Positions 1 through 8,504 of a DNA stretch of 8,504 nucleotides are shown here, one piece after another; positions within the stretch are counted from its first letter, which is position 1; every line of letters begins with the position of its first letter. The translations under genes were made by a program, and so were the position numbers. Below the pieces are notes generated by a model that made no database searches, was not told the DNA's origin, and worked only from the letters and a program-made list of their open reading frames with translations. This stretch comes from a virus (lineage: Duplodnaviria > Heunggongvirae > Uroviricota > Caudoviricetes): IMG/VR virus record IMGVR_UViG_2609459840_000006; one strand, given 5' to 3'.

Positions 1-146
1 CTTACACCGCTTCTCAACCCGGTACGCACCAGAAAATCATTGATATGGCCATGAATGGCGTTGGATGCCGGGCAACTGCCCGCATTATGGGCGTTGGCCT
101 CAACACGATTTTACGTCACTTAAAAAACTCAGGCCGCAGTCGGTAA
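1..146 (+). CDS. insA: IS1 InsA, C-terminal part (5'-partial; frame starts at nt 3)
   Basis: Frame 3 reads [47 protein letters not shown] then TAA at 144-146, matching the InsA C-terminus as I recall it. Confidence 0.85.
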
Positions 147-568
147 CCTCGCGCATACAGCCGGGCAGTGACGTCATCGTCTGCGCGGAAATGGACGAAC
201 AGTGGGGCTATGTCGGGGCTAAATCGCGCCAGCGCTGGCTGTTTTACGCGTATGACAGTCTCCGGAAGACGGTTGTTGCGCACGTATTCGGTGAACGCAC
301 TATGGCGACGCTGGGGCGTCTTATGAGCCTGCTGTCACCCTTTGACGTGGTGATATGGATGACGGATGGCTGGCCGCTGTATGAATTCCGCCTGAAGGGA
401 AAGCTGCACGTAATCAGCAAGCGATATACGCAGCGAATTGAGCGGCATAACCTGAATCTGAGGCAGCACCTGGCACGGCTGGGACGGAAGTCGCTGTCGT
501 TCTCAAAATCGGTGGAGCTGCATGACAAAGTCATCGGGCATTATCTGAACATAAAACACTATCAATAA
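65..568 (+). CDS. insB: IS1 InsB frame; in vivo expressed as InsAB' transposase by -1 frameshift at the A6C motif (122-128)
   Basis: 167-aa ORF in the -1 frame relative to insA. The slippery run ttaaaaaac at 120-128 sits in the insA/insB overlap, and the stop at 566-568 lies inside the right IR. Confidence 0.85.
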
Positions 569-583
569 GTTGGAGTCATTACC
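561..583. repeat. IS1 right terminal inverted repeat (23 bp)
   Basis: atcaataagttggagtcattacc is the reverse complement of the canonical IS1 end ggtaatgactccaacttattgat. Confidence 0.75.
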
Positions 584-589
584 AAAGTT

Positions 590-625
590 ATTAAAAATGG
601 GGCGTTGAAACGCCCCCAAAAATAA
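590..625 (-). terminator. Rho-independent terminator, probably for the porin transcript
   Basis: GC stem ggggcg/cgcccc (599-604 / 611-616) with loop ttgaaa; on the minus strand it is followed by a U-run (atttttaa). It lies 14 bp from the IS1 end. Confidence 0.5.
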
Positions 626-654
626 AGGGTAATATATAACAGAAGGTTTGTATA

Positions 655-740
655 GTTAGAAGCAAGGTTGTGCTTCTAAAGGAAGTGGCTTGAGGGAGCC
701 ACTTATATGTTGGGGAGGCAAAGCCTCCCACAACATATCT
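655..740. other. Three consecutive stem-loops in the porin 3' region
   Basis: agaagca-aggttg-tgcttct (659-678); gtggct-tgaggg-agccac (685-702); and a long hairpin atatgttggggaggc-aaa-gcctcccacaacatat (705-738, about 15 bp stem with one bulge), followed on the plus strand by cttttag. Confidence 0.4.
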
Positions 741-753
741 TTTAGTAATCAAA

Positions 754-1836
754 TTAGAACTGGTAAACCATACCTACAGCAACGATATCATCGGTAGCAA
801 CGCCAGATGCTTTCGTGAAATCGCTCTTATCAATCAGGTTGATTTTGTAGTCAACAAAAGTGGACATATTTTTGTTGAAGTAATAGGTTGCACCTACATC
901 AACATATTCAACCAGGTCCTGATCACCCCAAACACCCAAGTCTTTTCCTTTAGAATGCAGGTAAGCAACGGATGGACGCAGGCCGAAGTCGAACTGATAT
1001 TGTGCAACAGCTTCGAAGTTTTGTGCTTTGTTGGCAATATGGTTATTACCAAAAACAGTCATGTTCTGGGTTTCAGAATAGGTGGTGGCCAGATAGATGT
1101 TGTTCGCATCATATTTCAGACCAGCTGCCCATACTTCAGCATTTTGACCAGAAGCATTCAGACCGTTGTTACCGTAGATAACCTGATTATTAGTGCGATC
1201 AGATTTAGCATAGGTTGCACCCACGCCGAATCCTTCATACTCATAAGTAGTTGAGAAACCGAAACCATCGCCATTAGCTTCAGTTACTTCATTTCGGTCA
1301 TTTTTGCCCTGATACTGAGCTGCAAAGTTCAGGCCATCAACCAGACCAAAGAAGTCGTTGTTACGATAAGTTGCAACACCTGTGGTGCGACCAGTCATGA
1401 ATACATCTGTTTGGGTCCAGGTATCGCCACCGAATTCTGGCAGAACGTCAGTCCACGCACCGATGTCGTATGCTACACCGTAGTTACGGCCGTAATCGAT
1501 TGAGCCGTAGTCACCGAATTTCAGGCCTGCAAATGCAAGACGGGTTTTGTCTTTGGAGGAACCTTGAGATTCAGCGCGGTTGCCTTTGAATTCATATTCC
1601 CACTGACCGAAACCAGTCAGTTGATCGTTGATTTGGGTTTCACCTTTGAAGCCAAGACGGGCATAAGTAGTATCACCATCATCTGCATCATTAGAGGAGA
1701 AGTAGTGCTTAGCATTAACTTTCCCGTACAGATCCAGCTTGTTACTGTCTTTATTATAAATTTCAGCTGCCTGAGCAGACATCGCCATCAGTACTGATGC
1801 AGCTACAGCAGAAATTGCCACTGTTAATTTTTTCAT
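754..1836 (-). CDS. nmpC: Outer-membrane general porin, NmpC / phage Lc type (OmpC/OmpF/PhoE family), 360 aa
   Basis: N-terminal signal peptide [23 protein letters not shown]|AEIYNK, porin motifs throughout and the C-terminal aromatic ..VGMVYQF. The sequence matches my memory of NmpC/Lc. ATG at 1834-1836 on the minus strand. Confidence 0.9.
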
Positions 1837-2165
1837 CGTGAGCCCTTTTTTTTGAACTATTATTAAAAAATGATGTCACTGCGCGATAAATATTCATCTA
1901 ATCAATGTGATTATTTCAAGATGTAAGTTTTAGTTTCTCATTTAATTTGTGAAGTAGATCTCTATTTTTATCTGAACTTTTTCTATCGAAACCTATTTAT
2001 GGCTCTTATTTGAACAAAAATAAACCTATTAGCTAATTTATATTAATGGCTGTTATTTATGGGGGTTCTATAATTCGGCAGTTTAATTTAAATCAACTAA
2101 AAATAACGTCTGAAATTATTTATTGGTTATTTGTTGAGGTTTTCTTATGTATTTGTGGTGGAGTT

Positions 2166-2194
2166 TTGAACACTCGGTAGCATTCTCATAAATA
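2166..2194 (+). promoter_or_regulatory. Candidate sigma70 late promoter (pR'-like) upstream of the lysis cassette
   Basis: TTGAAC (2166-2171), 17-bp spacer, TAAATA (2189-2194); resembles lambda pR' (TTGACT-17-TAAATT) as I recall it. A weak hairpin plus T-runs at about 2259-2300 could be a tR'-like terminator. Unverified. Confidence 0.25.
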
Positions 2195-2424
2195 TCATTC
2201 AGCGGTTTACGTACGTAAAAAATTGGTTATGCTGTTAAGAGTGGTTACTTCGTCACACAGCTTAAACCCGCCGTCGAGCTGGTTTTTCCATTTTTTGAGT
2301 CTCGATATTAGCTGATAACTCAATACCTGAGTTATTCACTGACTCCGAGTCTGTTACGTTTCTGCTTTTTTGCGATACGTTGTATTCCCTCAATTTACAC
2401 CCGCTTTGTCTGCGAGGTGGGGTT

Positions 2425-2640
2425 ATGAAATCCATGGATAAGTTAACAACGGGTGTCGCCTATGGCACCTCAGCAGGTAGTGCCGGTTACTGGTTTTTAC
2501 AGCTGCTCGATAAAGTCACGCCCTCACAGTGGGCAGCAATAGGTGTGCTGGGTAGCCTGGTATTTGGCCTGCTGACGTACCTGACAAACCTTTATTTCAA
2601 GATTAAAGAAGATAAGCGCAAGGCTGCGAGAGGTGAATAA
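2425..2640 (+). CDS. S: Class II holin (pinholin), phage 21 S-type, 71 aa with dual-start motif
   Basis: [28 protein letters not shown].. with Met1-Lys2-Ser3-Met4 dual start and two TMDs, close to S21 from memory. Strong SD gaggtgg upstream of the ATG at 2425. The track's start at 2380 is a TTG extension and was rejected. Confidence 0.88.
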
Positions 2641-3137
2641 TGCCTCCATCATTACGAAAAGCCGTTGCTGCTGCTATTGGTGGCGGAGCAATTGCTATAG
2701 CATCAGTGTTAATCACTGGCCCAAGTGGTAACGATGGTCTGGAAGGTGTCAGCTACATACCATACAAAGATATTGTTGGTGTATGGACTGTATGTCACGG
2801 GCATACAGGAAAAGACATCATGCTCGGTAAAACGTATACCAAAGCAGAATGCAAAGCCCTCCTGAATAAAGACCTTGCCACGGTCGCCAGACAAATTAAC
2901 CCGTACATAAAAGTTGATATACCGGAAACAACGCGCGGCGCTCTTTACTTGTTCGTTTACAACGTGGGCGCTGGCAATTTCAGAACATCGACGCTTCTTC
3001 GCAAAATAAACCAGGGCGATATCAAAGGCGCATGTGATCAGCTACGTCGCTGGACATATGCTGGCGGTAAGCAATGGAAAGGTCTCATGACTCGTCGTGA
3101 GATTGAGCGTGAAATCTGTTTGTGGGGTCAGCAATGA
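2640..3137 (+). CDS. R: SAR endolysin (phage 21 R-type lysozyme), 165 aa
   Basis: N-terminal Gly/Ala-rich signal-anchor-release segment ([20 protein letters not shown]) and catalytic residues at E35, D44, T50 as in R21. The ATG overlaps the holin stop (TAATG). Confidence 0.9.
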
Positions 3138-3601
3138 ACAGAGTAACCGCGATTATCTCCGCTCTGGTTATCTGCATCATCGTCTGCCTGTCATGGGCTG
3201 TTAATCATTACCGTGATAATGCAATCGCCTACAAAGAACAGCGCGATAACAAGGCCAGTGAACTGGAGAAGGCGAACGCCACCATTACTGACATGCAGCA
3301 GCGCCAGCGTGATGCTGATGCACTCGATGATAAATACACGAAGGAGTTAGCTGATGCGAAAGCTGAAAATGATGCTCTTCGGCGCAAGCTTGATAATGGT
3401 GGTCGGGTGCTCGTCAAAGGAAAATGCCCTGTGCCATCCTCAGCCGAAACCTCCAGCGCCTCCGGCATGGGCAATGATGCCACCGTCGAACTCTCTCCAG
3501 TTGCTGGACGAAACGTTCTCGGTATCCGGGACGGAATTATCCGCGACCAAACAGCACTGAGAACGCTTCAGGAATACATCAGGACGCAATGCCTTCGATG
3601 A
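3134..3601 (+). CDS. Rz: Rz i-spanin (inner-membrane spanin subunit), 155 aa
   Basis: [30 protein letters not shown].. is near-identical to the lambda Rz N-terminus, with one TMD and a coiled-coil periplasmic domain. The ATG at 3134 overlaps the R stop (ATGA); the track start at 3122 is GTG. Confidence 0.88.
3354..3560 (+). CDS. Rz1: Rz1 o-spanin lipoprotein, embedded in the +1 frame of Rz, 68 aa
   Basis: [19 protein letters not shown].. has a signal peptide with lipobox (VVGC) and a Pro-rich mature part ([16 protein letters not shown]). Strong SD aaggag 7 nt upstream of the ATG. Lies entirely inside Rz. Confidence 0.8.
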
Positions 3602-4992: not shown

Positions 4993-5004
4993 GGGCGGCG
5001 ACCT
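4993..5004. other. cosN 12-nt cohesive-end sequence (gggcggcgacct)
   Basis: Exact match to the lambda cohesive end GGGCGGCGACCT, preceded by ..aggttacg, the lambda right end. Confidence 0.8.
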
Positions 5005-5101
5005 CGCGGGTTTTCGCTATTTATGAAAATTTTCCGGTTTAAGGTGTTTCCGTTCTTCTTCGTCGTAACTTAATGTTTTTATTTAAAATACCCCCTGAAA
5101 A

Positions 5102-5156
5102 GAAAGGAAACGACAGGTGCTGAAAGCGAGCTTTTTGGCCTCTGTCGTTTCCTTTC
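5102..5156. repeat. cosB R-element inverted repeat (terminase small-subunit binding sites R2/R1)
   Basis: Perfect 15-bp inverted repeat gaaaggaaacgacag (5102-5116) / ctgtcgtttcctttc (5142-5156), separated by 25 bp; a related tttccgttcttcttcg lies at about 5047-5062 (R3-like). Confidence 0.6.
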
Positions 5157-5181
5157 TCTGTTTTTGTCCGTGGAATGAACA

Positions 5182-5727: not shown

Positions 5728-7168
5728 CAGGCTGCGGCATTTTGTCCGCGCCGGGCTTCGCTCACTGTTCAGGCCGGAGCCACAGACCGCCGTTGAATGG
5801 GCGGATGCTAATTACTATCTCCCGAAAGAATCCGCATACCAGGAAGGGCGCTGGGAAACACTGCCCTTTCAGCGGGCCATCATGAATGCGATGGGCAGCG
5901 ACTACATCCGCGAGGTGAATGTGGTGAAGTCTGCCCGTGTTGGTTATTCCAAAATGCTGTTGGGTGTTTATGCCTACTTCATAGAGCATAAGCAGCGCAA
6001 CACACTTATCTGGTTGCCGACGGATGGTGATGCCGAGAACTTTATGAAAACCCACGTTGAGCCGACCATCCGCGATATTCCGTTGCTGCTGGCGCTGGCT
6101 CCGTGGTATGGCAAAAAGCACCGGGATAACACGCTCACCATGAAGCGTTTTTCCAATGGTCGTGGCTTCTGGTGCCTGGGCGGTAAAGCGGCAAAAAACT
6201 ACCGTGAAAAGTCGGTGGATGTGGCGGGGTATGATGAACTTGCTGCCTTTGATGAGGATATTGAACAGGAAGGCTCTCCGACGTTCCTTGGCGACAAACG
6301 TATTGAAGGCTCGGTCTGGCCAAAGTCCATCCGTGGCTCCACCCCCAAAGTGAGAGGTACCTGCCAGATTGAGCGTGCAGCCAGTGAATCCCCGCATTTT
6401 ATGCGTTTTCATGTTGCCTGTCCGCACTGCGGGGAGGAGCAGTACCTTAAATTTGGCGATAAAGAGACGTCGTTTGGCCTCAAATGGACGCCGGATGATC
6501 CCTCCAGCGTGTTTTATCTCTGCGAACATAATGCCTGCGTCATCCGCCAGCAGGAACTGGACTTCACTGATGCCCGTTATATCTGCGAAAAGACCGGGAT
6601 CTGGACCCGTGATGGCATTCTCTGGTTTTCGTCATCCGGTGAAGAGATTGAGCCGCCGGACAGCGTGACCTTTCACATCTGGACGGCGTACAGCCCGTTC
6701 ACCACCTGGGTGCAGATTGTCAAAGACTGGATGAAAACGAAAGGGGATACGGGAAAACGTAAAACCTTCGTAAACACCACGCTCGGTGAGACGTGGGAGG
6801 CGAAAATTGGCGAACGTCCGGATGCTGAAGTGATGGCAGAGCGGAAAGAGCATTATTCAGCGCCCGTTCCTGACCGTGTGGCTTACCTGACCGCCGGTAT
6901 CGACTCCCAGCTGGATCGCTACGAAATGCGCGTATGGGGATGGGGGCCGGGTGAGGAAAGCTGGCTGATTGACCGGCAGATTATTATGGGCCGCCACGAC
7001 GATGAACAGACGCTGCTGCGTGTGGATGAGGCCATCAATAAAACCTATACCCGCCGGAATGGTGCAGAAATGTCGGTATCCCGTATCTGCTGGGATACTG
7101 GCGGGATTGATCCGACCATTGTGTATGAACGCTCGAAAAAACATGGGCTGTTCCGGGTGATCCCATAA
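5702..7168 (+). pseudogene. A: Terminase large subunit A, truncated after codon 488 by IS186
   Basis: GTG start (as in lambda); MNISNSQVNRLRHFVRAGLRSLF... is near-identical to lambda gpA through ..KKHGLFRVIP, then TAA at 7166-7168 inside the IS186 terminal repeat. Lambda gpA is 641 aa, so about 150 C-terminal residues are missing from this reading frame. Confidence 0.9.
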
Positions 7169-7186
7169 GCGCTAACTTAAGGGTTG
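7164..7186. repeat. IS186 terminal inverted repeat (gene A-proximal end)
   Basis: cataagcgctaacttaagggttg; its reverse complement is found at 8480-8502. Confidence 0.75.
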
Positions 7187-7334
7187 AACCATCTGAAGAA
7201 TGCGACGCCTCGGTGCCTCGTTAAGACGATGCCTCGCGTTCTTCAATTGCGTTTTGTAGGCTGTCAGGGATACTGTCCCACGAATGGCCACCTGTAAGCT
7301 CCAGATGACCATTTTTGTTATTCTCCACAACGAG

Positions 7335-8447
7335 TTAGTTCTTCTTTTCGGATCCGGCACTTCTGGGGGGGAAATCCAGCGATGGCTGGATTATGTCGTC
7401 AATTAAAAATGCGGCGAGTAGATTAGCAAATATCCACGCTTTCGCGAGTTCAGGTTCCTTTGCACGCAAAGCATCCAGGTGCAGCAAACTTTTGAGCCGC
7501 TTAAAAGCCAGTTCAATTTGCCATCGCAGACGGTAACAATCAGCCACTTGCTCTGCTGAATATTCATCTTCCGGTAATGATGTTAGCAATAGCACATGGC
7601 CCGCTGCTTCCAGCGTTTCCGCCTGAACTACTCGTCCTTTTCGACGATTCTCGCTGAGCAGTCGGGTTTTACTGATTAATGCTTTTTCGGGAGGAAGTGA
7701 TACGGCAATGAGACGTGCCGGAAAGGGAGCTCCGGCTTTTTTATTACCTGAATTGCCTATCATTACAGTGGTTTCACCGTTCTTACCGCAATCCAGCCCG
7801 CGCAGAAAACCCATCATGTCAAAGCGCATTCCTTCTGCAGTTAACCAGCGCAATCCTCGCCAGTGAACCCGGACGATATAATCAGCTTCTCCAAAAGCAA
7901 GTGAGCGGATACATTCGGGACGCGAACCGAATCCCCGGTCAGCAATGCGTATCTCGTCTGCCGTTTGCGCAAATCGGTCCAGCCGTTCAGCGTCTCTGCT
8001 GTCGGTTAGCTCAAAATCAGTGAACTGACAGGTATGAGGATCATATCCCATATGTAGTCGCCATTCAGCGCTGCCGCCCCCGGGCGCACTGATTGCTGTT
8101 CCATCGACAAGACGCAATCTCTTTCCGCTTGTACAACCCGTAACTGCGGCGCGTACAGCAAGTGTTTGTGCGGCAAGTATGCCAAACCAGTCGGCGGCAT
8201 TCCGCAGCCGCTTCAGGAGAGCCACGTCAGATAATGTTGCAACGTCATGGAGCTGAGCCCATGCAGTGACTTCACGTAATGACATCCCCCCGGGGCCGTA
8301 AGCCAGCCCCAGACGTAGCAGAGTTGCAGCATCACGAATTTCGCGGCGGCGGGTTAGAGCCCCGGCATTACGTGCCGAAGTATCCAGTTCTTCGGGCTTA
8401 CCAATATGGGCCAGAATTGCTGACCAGTTATCGTGAGAGTAATTCAT
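7335..8447 (-). CDS. IS186 transposase (IS4-family DDE transposase), 370 aa
   Basis: MNYSHDNWSAILAHIGKPEELDTSARNAGALTRRREIRD.. matches the IS186 transposase as I recall it. ATG at 8447; the track start at 8453 is GTG. Confidence 0.9.
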   Translation of the reverse strand: MNYSHDNWSAILAHIGKPEELDTSARNAGALTRRREIRDAATLLRLGLAYGPGGMSLREVTAWAQLHDVATLSDVALLKRLRNAADWFGILAAQTLAVRAAVTGCTSGKRLRLVDGTAISAPGGGSAEWRLHMGYDPHTCQFTDFELTDSRDAERLDRFAQTADEIRIADRGFGSRPECIRSLAFGEADYIVRVHWRGLRWLTAEGMRFDMMGFLRGLDCGKNGETTVMIGNSGNKKAGAPFPARLIAVSLPPEKALISKTRLLSENRRKGRVVQAETLEAAGHVLLLTSLPEDEYSAEQVADCYRLRWQIELAFKRLKSLLHLDALRAKEPELAKAWIFANLLAAFLIDDIIQPSLDFPPRSAGSEKKN

Positions 8448-8479
8448 CGGCACGTTAAATCATATCAGGCGTAATACCA

Positions 8480-8502
8480 CAACCCTTAAGTTAGCGCTTA
8501 TG
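8480..8502. repeat. IS186 terminal inverted repeat (transposase-proximal end)
   Basis: caacccttaagttagcgcttatg is the reverse complement of 7164-7186. Confidence 0.75.
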
Positions 8503-8504
8503 GG

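Follow-up and report, generated by a model that had tools for sequence, protein, structure and literature searches.

The closest described relatives of the control region studied here are the late promoters served by Q proteins of the Q21/Q933W family, a name given by Yin et al. In phage 21 (Q21 and pR′21; Yin, Kaelber and Ebright 2019), a Q-binding element inside the promoter is followed by a sigma-dependent pause and then by a terminator; the element consists of two 8-bp subsites in direct repeat. In Stx phages (933W, Sakai Sp5, and Sp15), pR′ overlaps the end of Q. In Sakai, dRNA-seq located pR′ and Term-seq defined its product of 258 nt (Sy et al. 2020; PMC7547250); this terminated transcript is the small RNA StxS, which contains an RNase E site at +173 and yields a 3′ product of 74 nt. 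A different promoter appears in the literature on DLP12: Rueggeberg et al. (2013, 2015) are reported to assign lysis-cassette transcription and its Q responsiveness to an RpoE-type promoter (essDp), for which the expected signature is a sigma-E −35 GGAACTT, a −10 TCNAA and a start about 6 nt downstream.

The window, that is, the whole stretch of 8,504 nt analysed (IMG/VR record IMGVR_UViG_2609459840_000006), contains the nmpC–essD intergenic region of DLP12/PA-2-type prophages, an already known locus. This spacer lies at 1837–2424, bounded by the porin start codon (1834–1836, minus strand) and the holin ATG (2425). The AT-rich divergent spacer of about 590 bp that a preliminary description had placed between these two starts is present, with 588 bp and 33.5% G+C (47.5% for the whole window), and G+C falls to 25–29% across 1800–2200. 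The spacer is 100% identical to that of E. coli PM4-5, 94% to phage PA-2 and 90% to K-12 DLP12, and is matched in 3168 of the 5426 complete E. coli genomes. In intact relatives the order is quuD, porin (minus strand), spacer, essD. The K-12 nmpC–essD region and the PA-2 lc upstream region (J02580, 1986) are the same locus, sharing 90–94% identity, gene order and cassette. K-12 carries an IS5 in nmpC, a 16-bp leader deletion (window approximately 2347–2362), a G allele in the hairpin and an intact quuD, whereas the window has an intact porin gene, a T allele and an IS1 in place of Q. Nothing is annotated in the spacer in RefSeq or in most phage records. An Rfam search (E up to 1) gave no match in the spacer and three chance-level matches elsewhere, and the spacer ORFs that were tested had no Pfam match. 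Two ORFs were rejected: that at 2046–2180 (plus), the ATG of which reads ACG in K-12 and PA-2, and that at 2262–2435 (minus), which the 16-bp indel disrupts.

The spacer is a mosaic, formed at the junction of a left unit (approximately 1837–2165) and a right unit (2206–2424), as indicated by the homology breakpoints: porin-linked remnants stop near 2170–2185, Stx phages start at 2205 and ETEC1717 stops at 2287. A porin moron on the left and a Q21/Q933W late cassette with pR′ at A2240 on the right probably account for the whole spacer (table 1). The earlier expectation of a leftward porin and a rightward late promoter was right in its layout, since porin regulatory DNA lies on the left and the late promoter on the right, but the late promoter is 40 bases away from the place then given.

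Table 1. Features of the spacer and its flanking genes (window coordinates; + rightward)
Feature	Position	Strand	Description and basis
Porin gene, nmpC/lc type, 360 aa	754–1836	minus	ORF list; Pfam Porin_1, E = 3.6e-152
AT-rich regulatory DNA travelling with the porin gene	1837–2165		Right boundary approximate (2165–2205)
Sigma-E-like motif GAACTA-16-TCACT	1854–1880	+	Likely the published RpoE-dependent essDp; implied start near 1885
Strong rightward promoter	−10 TATTAT 1858–1863; start A1870	+	Start 33 nt from porin ATG; K-12 Cappable-seq
Predicted leftward porin promoter	−35 TTGAAA 1919–1914; −10 GAATAT 1895–1890; start near 1883	minus	18-nt spacer; prediction
CRP-like site TGTGAAGTAGATCTCT	1948–1963		8 of 10 half-site bases match
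pR′, Q21/Q933W family	−35 TTTACG 2206–2211; −10 TATGCT 2228–2233; start A2240	+	16-nt spacer; homology
14-bp palindrome TTTACGTACGTAAA	2206–2219		Followed by an A tract; candidate Q-binding element
Start block TGTTAAGAGTGGTTAC	2233–2248	+	Contains A2240 (+1)
Terminator-like hairpin and U tract	2264–2287 (+25 to +48)	+	Homologous to conserved Stx-type hairpin
Structured late-operon leader	2288–2424	+	Folding −38.8 kcal/mol, z = −3.76
Holin EssD, phage-21 type, dual start M1/M4	2425–2640	+	Pfam Phage_holin_2_1, E = 2e-35

The right unit begins with sequences that lie directly after Q in the Stx phages. Window positions 2205–2287 align with this DNA, annotated there as pR′ and then terminator, and the pR′ region is 76–77% identical to the annotated Stx-phage pR′. 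Both share the −35 TTTACG, the 16-nt spacing, a −10 of the form TA...T, an identical start block (TAAGAGTGGTTAC) and a hairpin with a U tract at +25 to +48. The same block is also found in SfII, phiP27 and ETEC1717, and among seven sequences from different contexts, identified through similarity, the start block varies at its third base alone (T or A). QuuD, the Q of intact relatives, is 78–81% identical to Stx-phage Q, and its matches to Pfam PF06530 (E = 3.5e-53), shared with Q21, and to Q21 chains in PDB (E = 7.6e-07) place it in the same family. QuuD and Q21 are only about 35% identical over 80 residues. The window departs from the Stx phages in three respects. The center of the palindrome reads TA in the window and AT in the Stx phages; homology ends at +48, so that the window has no RNase E site, no 74-nt StxS RNA and no tR′ at +258, and the holin ATG follows at +186; and in window-type relatives a porin unit of 1.67 kb separates Q from pR′, the distance from the Q stop codon to the pR′ start being 1673–1692 bp in the intact ones. 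This intervening unit had been overlooked by the earlier reader.

In Sakai, the U tract of tR′ ends 257 nt past an A lying 7 nt after TATCAT, which fits the homologous start A. The K-12 start predicted from Sakai homology is at 576452 (U00096.2), and the Cappable-seq list has a plus-strand start exactly there; given that clustered starts number about one in 570 nt of each strand, the probability of an exact coincidence by chance is about 0.2%. This list (minimal-medium growth) contains two plus-strand starts in the K-12 spacer, 576081 and 576452. The offset between U00096.2 and U00096.3, which we take to be +777, finds its sole corroboration in the fact that both K-12 starts fall 7 nt after good −10 hexamers. 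Homology and two independent start-site data sets fix the late promoter of DLP12/PA-2-type prophages to a single base, and a sigma-70 late promoter with a mapped start is located directly upstream of the late operon; the mapping belongs to the K-12 and Sakai alleles and should hold for the window. The position A2240 differs from that of the sigma-E promoter used in the DLP12 literature, which affects both the design and the reading of lysis-cassette reporter fusions. Against pR′ as the main promoter, the K-12 start at 576452 is weak (read score 1.7, threshold 1.5), and the rightward start at the 1870 equivalent is about 50 times stronger.

Conservation in IMG/VR points in the same direction as the mapping. 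In 59 unique sequences with Q upstream, −11A is present in all 59 and −12T in 52, and these two positions were left free by the search pattern, whereas the invariance from −7 to +9 was imposed by it. An A tract at −23 to −19 is found in this set, and a hairpin with a T run follows downstream in 57 of the 59. Among the similarity-found sequences, +2 to +9 (GTGGTTAC) is invariant, and the stretch from +3 to +12 is a candidate sigma-dependent pause element. T+7 and A+8 could be its first two bases, in a window hexamer (TACTTC) that does not have the conserved final T; neither a −10-like pause element nor a Q-binding site could be identified with confidence in the cassette. For the first small hairpin (+2 to +17), the idea that the RNA structure is conserved was rejected: family members would form different hairpins, so that it is the DNA which is conserved.

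The tR′-like hairpin with T-runs, noticed before at about 2259–2300 and lying at 2258–2296, does correspond to the conserved hairpin of the family, but its energy in the window is at chance level (z = −0.3), and it matters only because of this homology. The 8-bp stem is broken by a T at 2280, a position at which K-12, Stx and SfII carry G, and the folding energy is −8.4 kcal/mol in the window, −14.1 in K-12 and −21.9 in Sakai. PA-2 shares the T allele, and both alleles are common in IMG/VR. In a terminator scan, the K-12 allele is the sole plus-strand terminator-like site between the porin and holin genes, and the T2280 allele of the window does not pass. The homology of ETEC1717 ends exactly at this hairpin. 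The homologous Stx hairpin, though much stronger, is evidently read through in vivo (the mapped product has 258 nt), so that the hairpin may be an inefficient terminator. The leader that follows is predicted to fold into a long imperfect hairpin (approximately 2298–2352) and a second one (2400–2421) which pairs with the holin Shine-Dalgarno GAGGTGGGG. Its homology to SfII reaches the ribosome-binding site, though the SfII holin differs. The late genes begin with the holin gene, for which the 434B record gives antiholin/holin, and continue on the plus strand with an endolysin that carries a membrane signal at its N-terminus, then Rz, Nu1 and the gpA terminase.

The left unit, with a G+C content of 26–29%, travels with the porin gene. 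In EC01307 and ATCC 43896, which are degraded prophage remnants with no intact porin gene in their annotation, homology extends from the 5′ coding end of the porin gene (window approximately 1800) to about 2170–2185. The porin, labelled OmpC, OmpD or NmpC in the annotation of relatives, forms a moron with its own promoter region and terminator (616–599, minus strand), a composition unlike that of its flanks and a presence/absence distribution. For instance, Stx phages with a 78%-identical Q lack it, and other phages have other inserts in the same slot. In K-12, the counterpart of approximately 1917–2270 (U00096.2 576129, 354 bp, nmpC/essD) is on the list of 78 promoter islands of Panyukov and Ozoline (2013; PMC3661553), with H-NS binding reported in every ChIP study. 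It has the traits of such islands (AT-rich, dense in promoter-like hexamers, and beside horizontally acquired genes), and yet, whereas that paper treats the islands as largely silent, the K-12 spacer has two defined plus-strand starts, one of them strong. A SELEX study of sigma-S RNA polymerase reports a peak at 576032 in K-12 (PMC5493296).

The strong start, 576081(+) with a read score of 90.2, is the A1870 equivalent, an A seven nt past TATTAT in NC_000913.3; around it the window and K-12 are identical but for one additional T in the upstream T run. A leaderless 18-codon ORF starting at A1870 was rejected, with a frameshift in ETEC1717 and an early stop in EC01307. On the opposite strand, the predicted porin promoter has the top weight-matrix score (7.2), which is joint second overall, tied with a plus-strand pair at 2010–2039; both of its hexamers are kept among relatives, exactly in five out of six. 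The CRP-like site is centered 72.5 bp upstream of the predicted start, is kept in relatives (the ETEC1717 variant TGTGATCTAGATCTCT being nearer to the consensus) and corresponds to a CRP site annotated in the PA-2 record J02580 at 1363–1383, that is, window 1945–1965. One of the two “CRP sites” of this 1986 record is the conserved +1 to +21 of the late transcript. As for the recurrence of TGAAC pointed out earlier, the motif does occur at 1853, 1973, 2011 and 2167, but no better than chance and with no demonstrated meaning. Four copies on one strand give a nominal P of about 0.001 for a motif chosen post hoc (0.026 on both strands), a count of four is reached by several other 5-mers too, and only two of the TGAAC copies are kept in all relatives. 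One copy falls inside the published sigma-E-like motif.

The most serious competing explanation, although an unlikely one, is that a sigma-E (RpoE) promoter next to the porin start drives the lysis cassette with Q acting there, and that the pR′ homologue is a relic or of minor use; in a softer version, Q modifies polymerases from the A1870 promoter that pause at the downstream cassette. A motif scan found the sigma-E motif at the right spacing, and Pasqua et al. cite control by Q, RpoE and Hha, with a cloned fragment from −121 to +650 relative to the start of Rueggeberg et al. (2015); when the primers are mapped, this start falls at approximately window 1885. The strong K-12 start is only 15 nt upstream of it, at the A1870 equivalent, and distal loading is mechanistically possible, given that 82Q can engage polymerase paused far from its promoter. 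On the contrary, Cappable-seq in minimal medium shows no start at the implied essDp position, and the real start follows a sigma-70-like TATTAT. Among the SELEX passages on DLP12 that were consulted, the nohB–appY spacer alone stands under RpoE, and the essD spacer under a stationary-phase sigma heading. Moreover, TCACT is disrupted in ETEC1717, whose pR′ cassette stays intact, and in SfII, phiP27 and Stx phages, with other inserts or none, the sigma-E motif is missing and the cassette kept. The binding element of Q in the Q21/Q933W family sits within −40 to −1 of pR′.

Far less credible is the late promoter proposed in the preliminary description, a lambda-pR′-like TTGAAC-17-TAAATA, which would start near 2201, with the hairpin as tR′. 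The hexamers exist at 2166–2194 with a real 17-nt spacing and are kept in PA-2 (the −35 also in ETEC1717), but pR′ occupies 2206–2233 and starts at A2240, and the cassette is of the Q21/Q933W and not of the lambda type. The weight-matrix score of the pair (6.0) equals that of the homology-supported promoter, but it is at chance: about ten other pairs in the spacer are equal or better, and in shuffled sequence the best match averages 9.65. Both hexamers are degraded in K-12 (TTCAAT and CAAATA), where no plus-strand Cappable-seq start lies near their equivalent, the −10 does not have the key final T, and the Stx, SfII and phiP27 cassettes have no counterpart, their DNA at this position being Q coding sequence or unrelated. 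In the promoter prediction suggested as a check, a strict sigma-70 scan found 0 sites in 500–2700 against 5.1 expected from shuffles. Promoter assignment by hexamers alone was rejected as uninformative in such AT-rich DNA. A tblastn search of 2130–2200 for a remnant of the Q933W C-terminus gave no plus-frame match, and the locus is missing from the supplements of the Adams Term-seq and SMRT-Cappable-seq studies.

A late promoter directly beside Q, in the 188 bp between the Q and porin stops (window 584–753), with transcription running antisense through the porin gene and the spacer, can practically be dismissed: textbook cassettes have pR′ directly after Q and the segment offers −10-like hexamers (a TAATAT/TATAGT pair) and three hairpins, but it is confined to the 36 phage records with the porin and is therefore part of the 3′ end of the porin unit. 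It does not resemble the pR′ that goes with Q933W, a Q of 78% identity, and misfits the described 82 pR′ (AAA start, GCC at +15 to +17). Moreover, each locus has a single copy of the conserved start block, on the downstream side of the insert.

With pR′ at A2240, the spacer would work as follows. A porin moron seems to have entered, in reverse orientation, between Q and the promoter on which Q acts. Its AT-rich DNA, coated by H-NS in K-12, probably contains a CRP-dependent leftward porin promoter, and the untranslated rightward transcript from A1870 is presumably stopped before the lysis genes. The weak constitutive sigma-70 promoter TTTACG-16-TATGCT would start at A2240, and RNA polymerase would cross the conserved start block, probably pausing with sigma still bound, before meeting the hairpin and U tract and then the 137-nt leader, which may mask the holin ribosome-binding site. 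The order expected is that of Q21, with an element inside the promoter, a sigma-dependent pause and then a terminator. A cognate Q of the QuuD type should bind near pR′, for which the 14-bp palindrome, the only conspicuous element there and unlike the direct repeat of Q21, is the candidate site. Q would be loaded on the polymerase during the pause and take it past the hairpin to the holin, endolysin, spanin and packaging genes.

In this lineage Q has been removed by IS1. The Q region, already suspected to be missing, is indeed absent from the window, and IS1 sits 22 bp beyond the position of the Q stop codon in intact relatives. In strain ET76, which has an identical junction, IS1 replaced everything from the truncated integrase to the porin terminator. 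The late operon could therefore be switched on only through a compatible Q of another prophage or through leaky read-through. This copy is an ordinary control region of a very common defective prophage, of a type that over half of the complete E. coli genomes contain, with its activator gene lost, and the results are of little consequence for the window itself.

The porin unit is one case of a wider pattern of cargo between Q and the promoter. Of 91 IMG/VR loci in which a Q gene precedes the conserved start block, 59 contain inserts of 0.63–3.05 kb, in at least 15 length classes, and these are mostly on the opposite strand and AT-rich. It is conceivable, at somewhat short of even chances, that the gap between Q and promoter in the Q21/Q933W family is a recurrent slot for accessory genes and that the variable palindrome (approximately −34 to −21) is the specificity element of Q, with a geometry other than that of Q21. 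The palindrome differs by Q cluster while its flanks stay fixed, an association that linkage could also explain. If this is true, slot cargo lies upstream of pR′ and is insulated from late transcription, unlike stx, and Q must find a promoter up to 3 kb away. The pattern, if undescribed, would be relevant to prophages that carry host-benefit or defence genes unexposed to late transcription.

The cargo of the slot includes the porin, a KAP NTPase, an AAA ATPase, an NYN-domain protein and many unknowns. A 346-aa ORF beside the AAA ATPase is a putative cytosine methyltransferase, based on an FSGCGG motif recognized by eye outside the Pfam scan. In several insert-carrying clusters, among them clusters 1 and 5 and that of QuuD, the C-terminus of Q coincides with a conserved LEMD motif or lies no more than about 7 residues beyond it, whereas most Qs of the adjacent type have a tail of about 6–25 residues past LEMD; SfII-like insert clusters do not have the motif.

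The window (8.5 kb) corresponds to the late region of a DLP12/PA-2-type lambdoid prophage that is defective. Over the spacer between its porin and holin genes, identity reaches 100% with E. coli PM4-5, 94% with phage PA-2 and 90% with K-12 DLP12; of 5426 complete E. coli genomes, 3168 have a match to it. It is a real control region of a long-known locus and ordinary for its prophage family. Mildly novel content is limited to the base-level placement of the late promoter pR' and to a recurrent cargo slot between pR' and the gene of the late antiterminator Q (quuD).

Features of the porin-holin locus and its surroundings
Feature	Position	Strand	Details
IS1 end	1-583		Pfam DDE_Tnp_IS1
Porin 3' untranslated region and terminator	584-753		
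Porin	754-1836	minus	360 aa; Porin_1, E = 3.6e-152
Spacer (nmpC-essD type)	1837-2424		588 bp
pR'	2206-2233	plus	start A2240
Conserved initial transcribed block	to 2248	plus	
Terminator-like hairpin and U tract	2264-2287	plus	
Leader	2288-2424	plus	folds well, z = -3.76
Lysis genes	3' of spacer		phage-21-type holin; endolysin with N-terminal membrane signal; Rz
Genes beyond Rz			two small minus-strand genes; lambda-like packaging region; Nu1
gpA terminase gene			cut by second insertion sequence

In PM4-5, ev099 and the DLP12 segment of phage 434B, the gene order is quuD, porin (on the opposite strand), spacer and the holin gene essD; 188 bp lie between the stop codons of Q and the porin in intact relatives. 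In the window, IS1 sits 22 bp beyond the point where the Q stop codon would be and adjoins the porin terminator. ET76 (locus L013, 7451-9139) carries the identical IS1-porin junction, and there IS1 borders a truncated integrase, itself beside ybhC. An IS1-associated deletion has thus taken the entire early region (repressor, N, replication genes and Q), in agreement with the absence of Q assumed in the preliminary description.

The spacer is indeed AT-rich (33.5% G+C, as against 47.5% for the window), with only 25-29% G+C in its left two thirds. The preliminary description was right in reading it as a control region, but its specific promoter call was wrong. The proposed late promoter, TTGAAC-17-TAAATA, exists at 2166-2194, with a weight-matrix score of 6.0 which is matched or beaten by about 10 other pairs in the spacer, the best score of shuffled sequences averaging 9.65. 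A strict sigma-70 promoter scan of 500-2700 gave no site, against 5.1 expected. The recurring TGAAC was found at 1853, 1973, 2011 and 2167 (nominal one-strand P = 0.001, for a motif picked afterwards), and two of the four copies are unconserved. None of these hexamer-level features is above chance. Since hexamers cannot place a promoter in DNA so AT-rich, its location was taken from homology and from published maps of start sites.

QuuD matches Pfam PF06530 (E = 3.5e-53) and the Q21 chains of PDB 6P18 and 6JNX (E = 7.6e-07), and shares 78-81% identity with the Q proteins of Shiga-toxin (Stx) phages. In this family, named Q21/Q933W by Yin et al., the order is Q gene, pR', sigma-dependent pause element, terminator and late genes, with the Q-binding element located within -40 to -1 (Yin et al.). 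A sensitive search with 2100-2424 matched about 290 Stx-phage records over 2205-2287, which coincides exactly with the putative pR' and the possible terminator following it, as annotated in the records of Ss-VASD and 06-3462. In the alignment, a -35 TTTACG is separated by 16 nt from a TA...T -10 element; then come the block TG(T/A)TAAGAGTGGTTAC, unchanging except for its third base, and a hairpin AACCCGC...GCGGGTT followed by T runs. The start block, the conserved initial transcribed stretch, is also present in SfII, phiP27 and the ETEC1717 prophage.

In Sakai, the pR' start was mapped by dRNA-seq, and the 3' end of the terminated product, 258 nt downstream, by Term-seq (Sy et al. 2020, PMC7547250). 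The U tract of the Sakai terminator tR' ends 257 nt after the A located 7 nt past the -10 TATCAT, and this distance sets +1 at the A of TAAG-A-GTGG, corresponding to A2240. For K-12 the predicted start is therefore 576452 (U00096.2), 169 nt before the essD ATG at 576621. The latter stands at 577398 in NC_000913.3, presumably through an offset of +777 between the two versions. Exactly two plus-strand start sites, 576081 and 576452, are found within the K-12 spacer in the Cappable-seq table of Ettwiller et al.; the second (read score 1.7, enrichment 4.8) is the predicted A. Given roughly one clustered start site every 570 nt on each strand, chance would place one exactly on the predicted base in about 0.2% of cases.

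This placement in DLP12-type prophages conflicts with the published promoter position. According to Pasqua et al., the DLP12 lysis operon is under a Q-type antiterminator, RpoE and Hha, and the cloned fragment spans -121 to +650, numbered from the start reported in Rueggeberg et al. 2015. The primers given there map to 1764 and about 2550, which implies a start near 1885. Upstream of it, at 1854-1880, there is a sigma-E-like GAACTA-16-TCACT. Rueggeberg and colleagues reportedly found this promoter in silico, and a mutation of its -35 is said to have lowered both RpoE binding and the Q response. The target of Q would then be the sigma-E promoter, or Q would modify polymerases which start at A1870, the equivalent of K-12 576081, and pause at the downstream cassette of pR', start block and hairpin. 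The softer, A1870 version is conceivable, as 82Q is able to load at a promoter-distal pause. However, the K-12 Cappable-seq plus-strand list for the spacer has no site near 1885, the TCACT is unconserved in ETEC1717, and the sigma-E-like motif is missing from related phages that retain the cassette. These points speak against the sigma-E promoter as the Q target; together with the softer version it is the main rival reading, though an unlikely one. The 188 bp after Q were also considered as the site of an 82-like promoter and rejected, as this segment occurs only in the 36 porin-carrying phage records, has no similarity to the DNA behind the 78%-identical Q933W and does not match the published features of the 82 pR'.

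The left part of the spacer belongs to the porin. In degraded prophage remnants, where no intact porin gene is annotated, homology begins in the 5' coding end of the porin and stops near 2170-2185, so about 1837-2165 is part of the porin unit. The K-12 counterpart is among 78 "promoter islands", H-NS-bound in all ChIP data sets (PMC3661553), and includes a sigma-S RNA polymerase SELEX peak (PMC5493296). K-12 576081 has a very strong read score (90.2) and is an A seven nt after TATTAT. Its equivalent, A1870 (promoter 1858-1870), lies 33 nt from the porin ATG and is directed away from the porin. At its 5' end the RNA has AUG AUG and an unconserved 18-codon ORF; no conserved ORF was found among the relatives compared, and no terminator close by in the scan. 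On the minus strand the top promoter prediction is TTGAAA-18-GAATAT, which would start near 1883. Two CRP sites are annotated in the PA-2 record (GenBank J02580, 1986). The first, at 1945-1965, agrees with the half-sites at 8 of 10 bases, is conserved and comes nearer to consensus in ETEC1717; it would lie at -72.5 from the predicted porin start, a standard class I position. The second (J02580 1067-1087) is exactly 2240-2260 and so covers the first 21 nt (+1 to +21) of the late transcript. As this stretch is also highly conserved in porin-less phages, the annotation probably reflects a chance resemblance (TCACA half-site) and not a true CRP site.

Three hairpins are present on the minus strand in the porin 3' untranslated region (584-753), with a clean one-directional terminator at its end (GGGGCGTTTCAACGCCCC and a T run, 616-599). 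The segment is confined to porin-bearing phages, and Rfam gave nothing in it. Castillo-Keller et al. (2006, J Bacteriol) reportedly mapped to this segment the IpeX RNA of DLP12/PA-2, which inhibits expression of OmpC/OmpF.

The tR'-like hairpin proposed at about 2259-2300 was found, with T runs, at 2258-2296 and is homologous to the conserved cassette hairpin, but its stem in the window is weakened by T2280. The T is shared with PM4-5 and PA-2, while K-12, ETEC1717, the Stx phages and SfII have G; both alleles are frequent in IMG/VR. With T2280 the 8-bp stem is lost, and a weaker one of 6 bp (CAGCUU/GAGCUG), still ahead of the U tract, takes its place. The respective energies are -8.4 (window), -14.1 (K-12) and -21.9 kcal/mol (Sakai). 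In K-12 the hairpin is the sole terminator-like plus-strand site between the porin and holin genes. Since the mapped Stx product is 258 nt long, the stronger Stx version is evidently read through, and 2264-2287 is only a candidate terminator. Homology of the leader to its SfII counterpart extends as far as the ribosome-binding site, despite different holins, and folding pairs the holin ribosome-binding site within a hairpin at 2400-2421. K-12 DLP12 lacks 16 bp of the leader at about 2347-2362 (the TCTGCTTTTTTGCGATA region), which the window and PA-2 have; for this reason its spacer is 572 bp and not 588 bp.

Of the 120 loci given by a scan of IMG/VR with TGNTAAGAGTGGTTAC, 91 have a same-strand Q21-family gene upstream. 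In 32 of these 91, the gap between Q stop codon and start site is 5-51 bp; the other 59 carry inserts of 0.63-3.05 kb, which are spread over at least 15 length classes and of which about 20 are of the porin type. The inserts are mostly antisense and AT-rich. Their proteins include a KAP NTPase, a NYN-domain protein and several without a Pfam match; one insert has an AAA_15/AAA_21 ATPase beside a 346-aa ORF which by eye is cytosine methyltransferase-like (FSGCGG motif). Several look like defence genes. In a set of 59 unique sequences with a Q gene upstream, the positions outside the search pattern show -11A in 59 and -12T in 52, with an A tract spanning -23 to -19, and this conservation supports a real promoter; a hairpin and T run follow in 57. 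In place of the -35 region there is a palindrome that varies among Q clusters (ACGTACGT, ACGATCGT, GCGTACGC, GCGGTCCGC, GGAATTCC, GTCATGAC and TTCGTTACGAA), a candidate specificity element whose association with Q could be mere linkage. The solved Q21 element, in contrast, is a direct repeat. In several clusters with inserts (QuuD, clusters 1 and 5), the Q protein stops at a conserved LEMD motif or at most about 7 residues after it, while most adjacent-type Q proteins extend about 6-25 residues past LEMD; SfII-like insert clusters are without the motif.

Slot inserts were seen at loci L017, L020, L036, L038, L042, L075, L096 and others. Further ones encode pairs of membrane and unknown proteins like those of SfII orf49/50, or a 306-aa ORF, by eye alpha/beta hydrolase-like.

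Further downstream, the segment 4880-5200 runs into Nu1 and has 98.8-99.1% identity in the best 8 of 95 matching lambda-like phage records and at least 95% in 84 of the 95. It presumably holds the lambda cohesive-end site, with GGGCGGCGACCT at about 4993-5004. A long inverted repeat at 5096-5162 accounts for chance microRNA matches in Rfam. An IS4-family element at 7162-8504, which we take to resemble IS186, splits the gene of the terminase large subunit, cutting the nuclease domain at 170 of 294 profile positions. It is bounded by perfect terminal inverted repeats of 25 bp and encodes a minus-strand DDE_Tnp_1 transposase of 372 aa. As the terminase is whole in ET76, this insertion was a later event.
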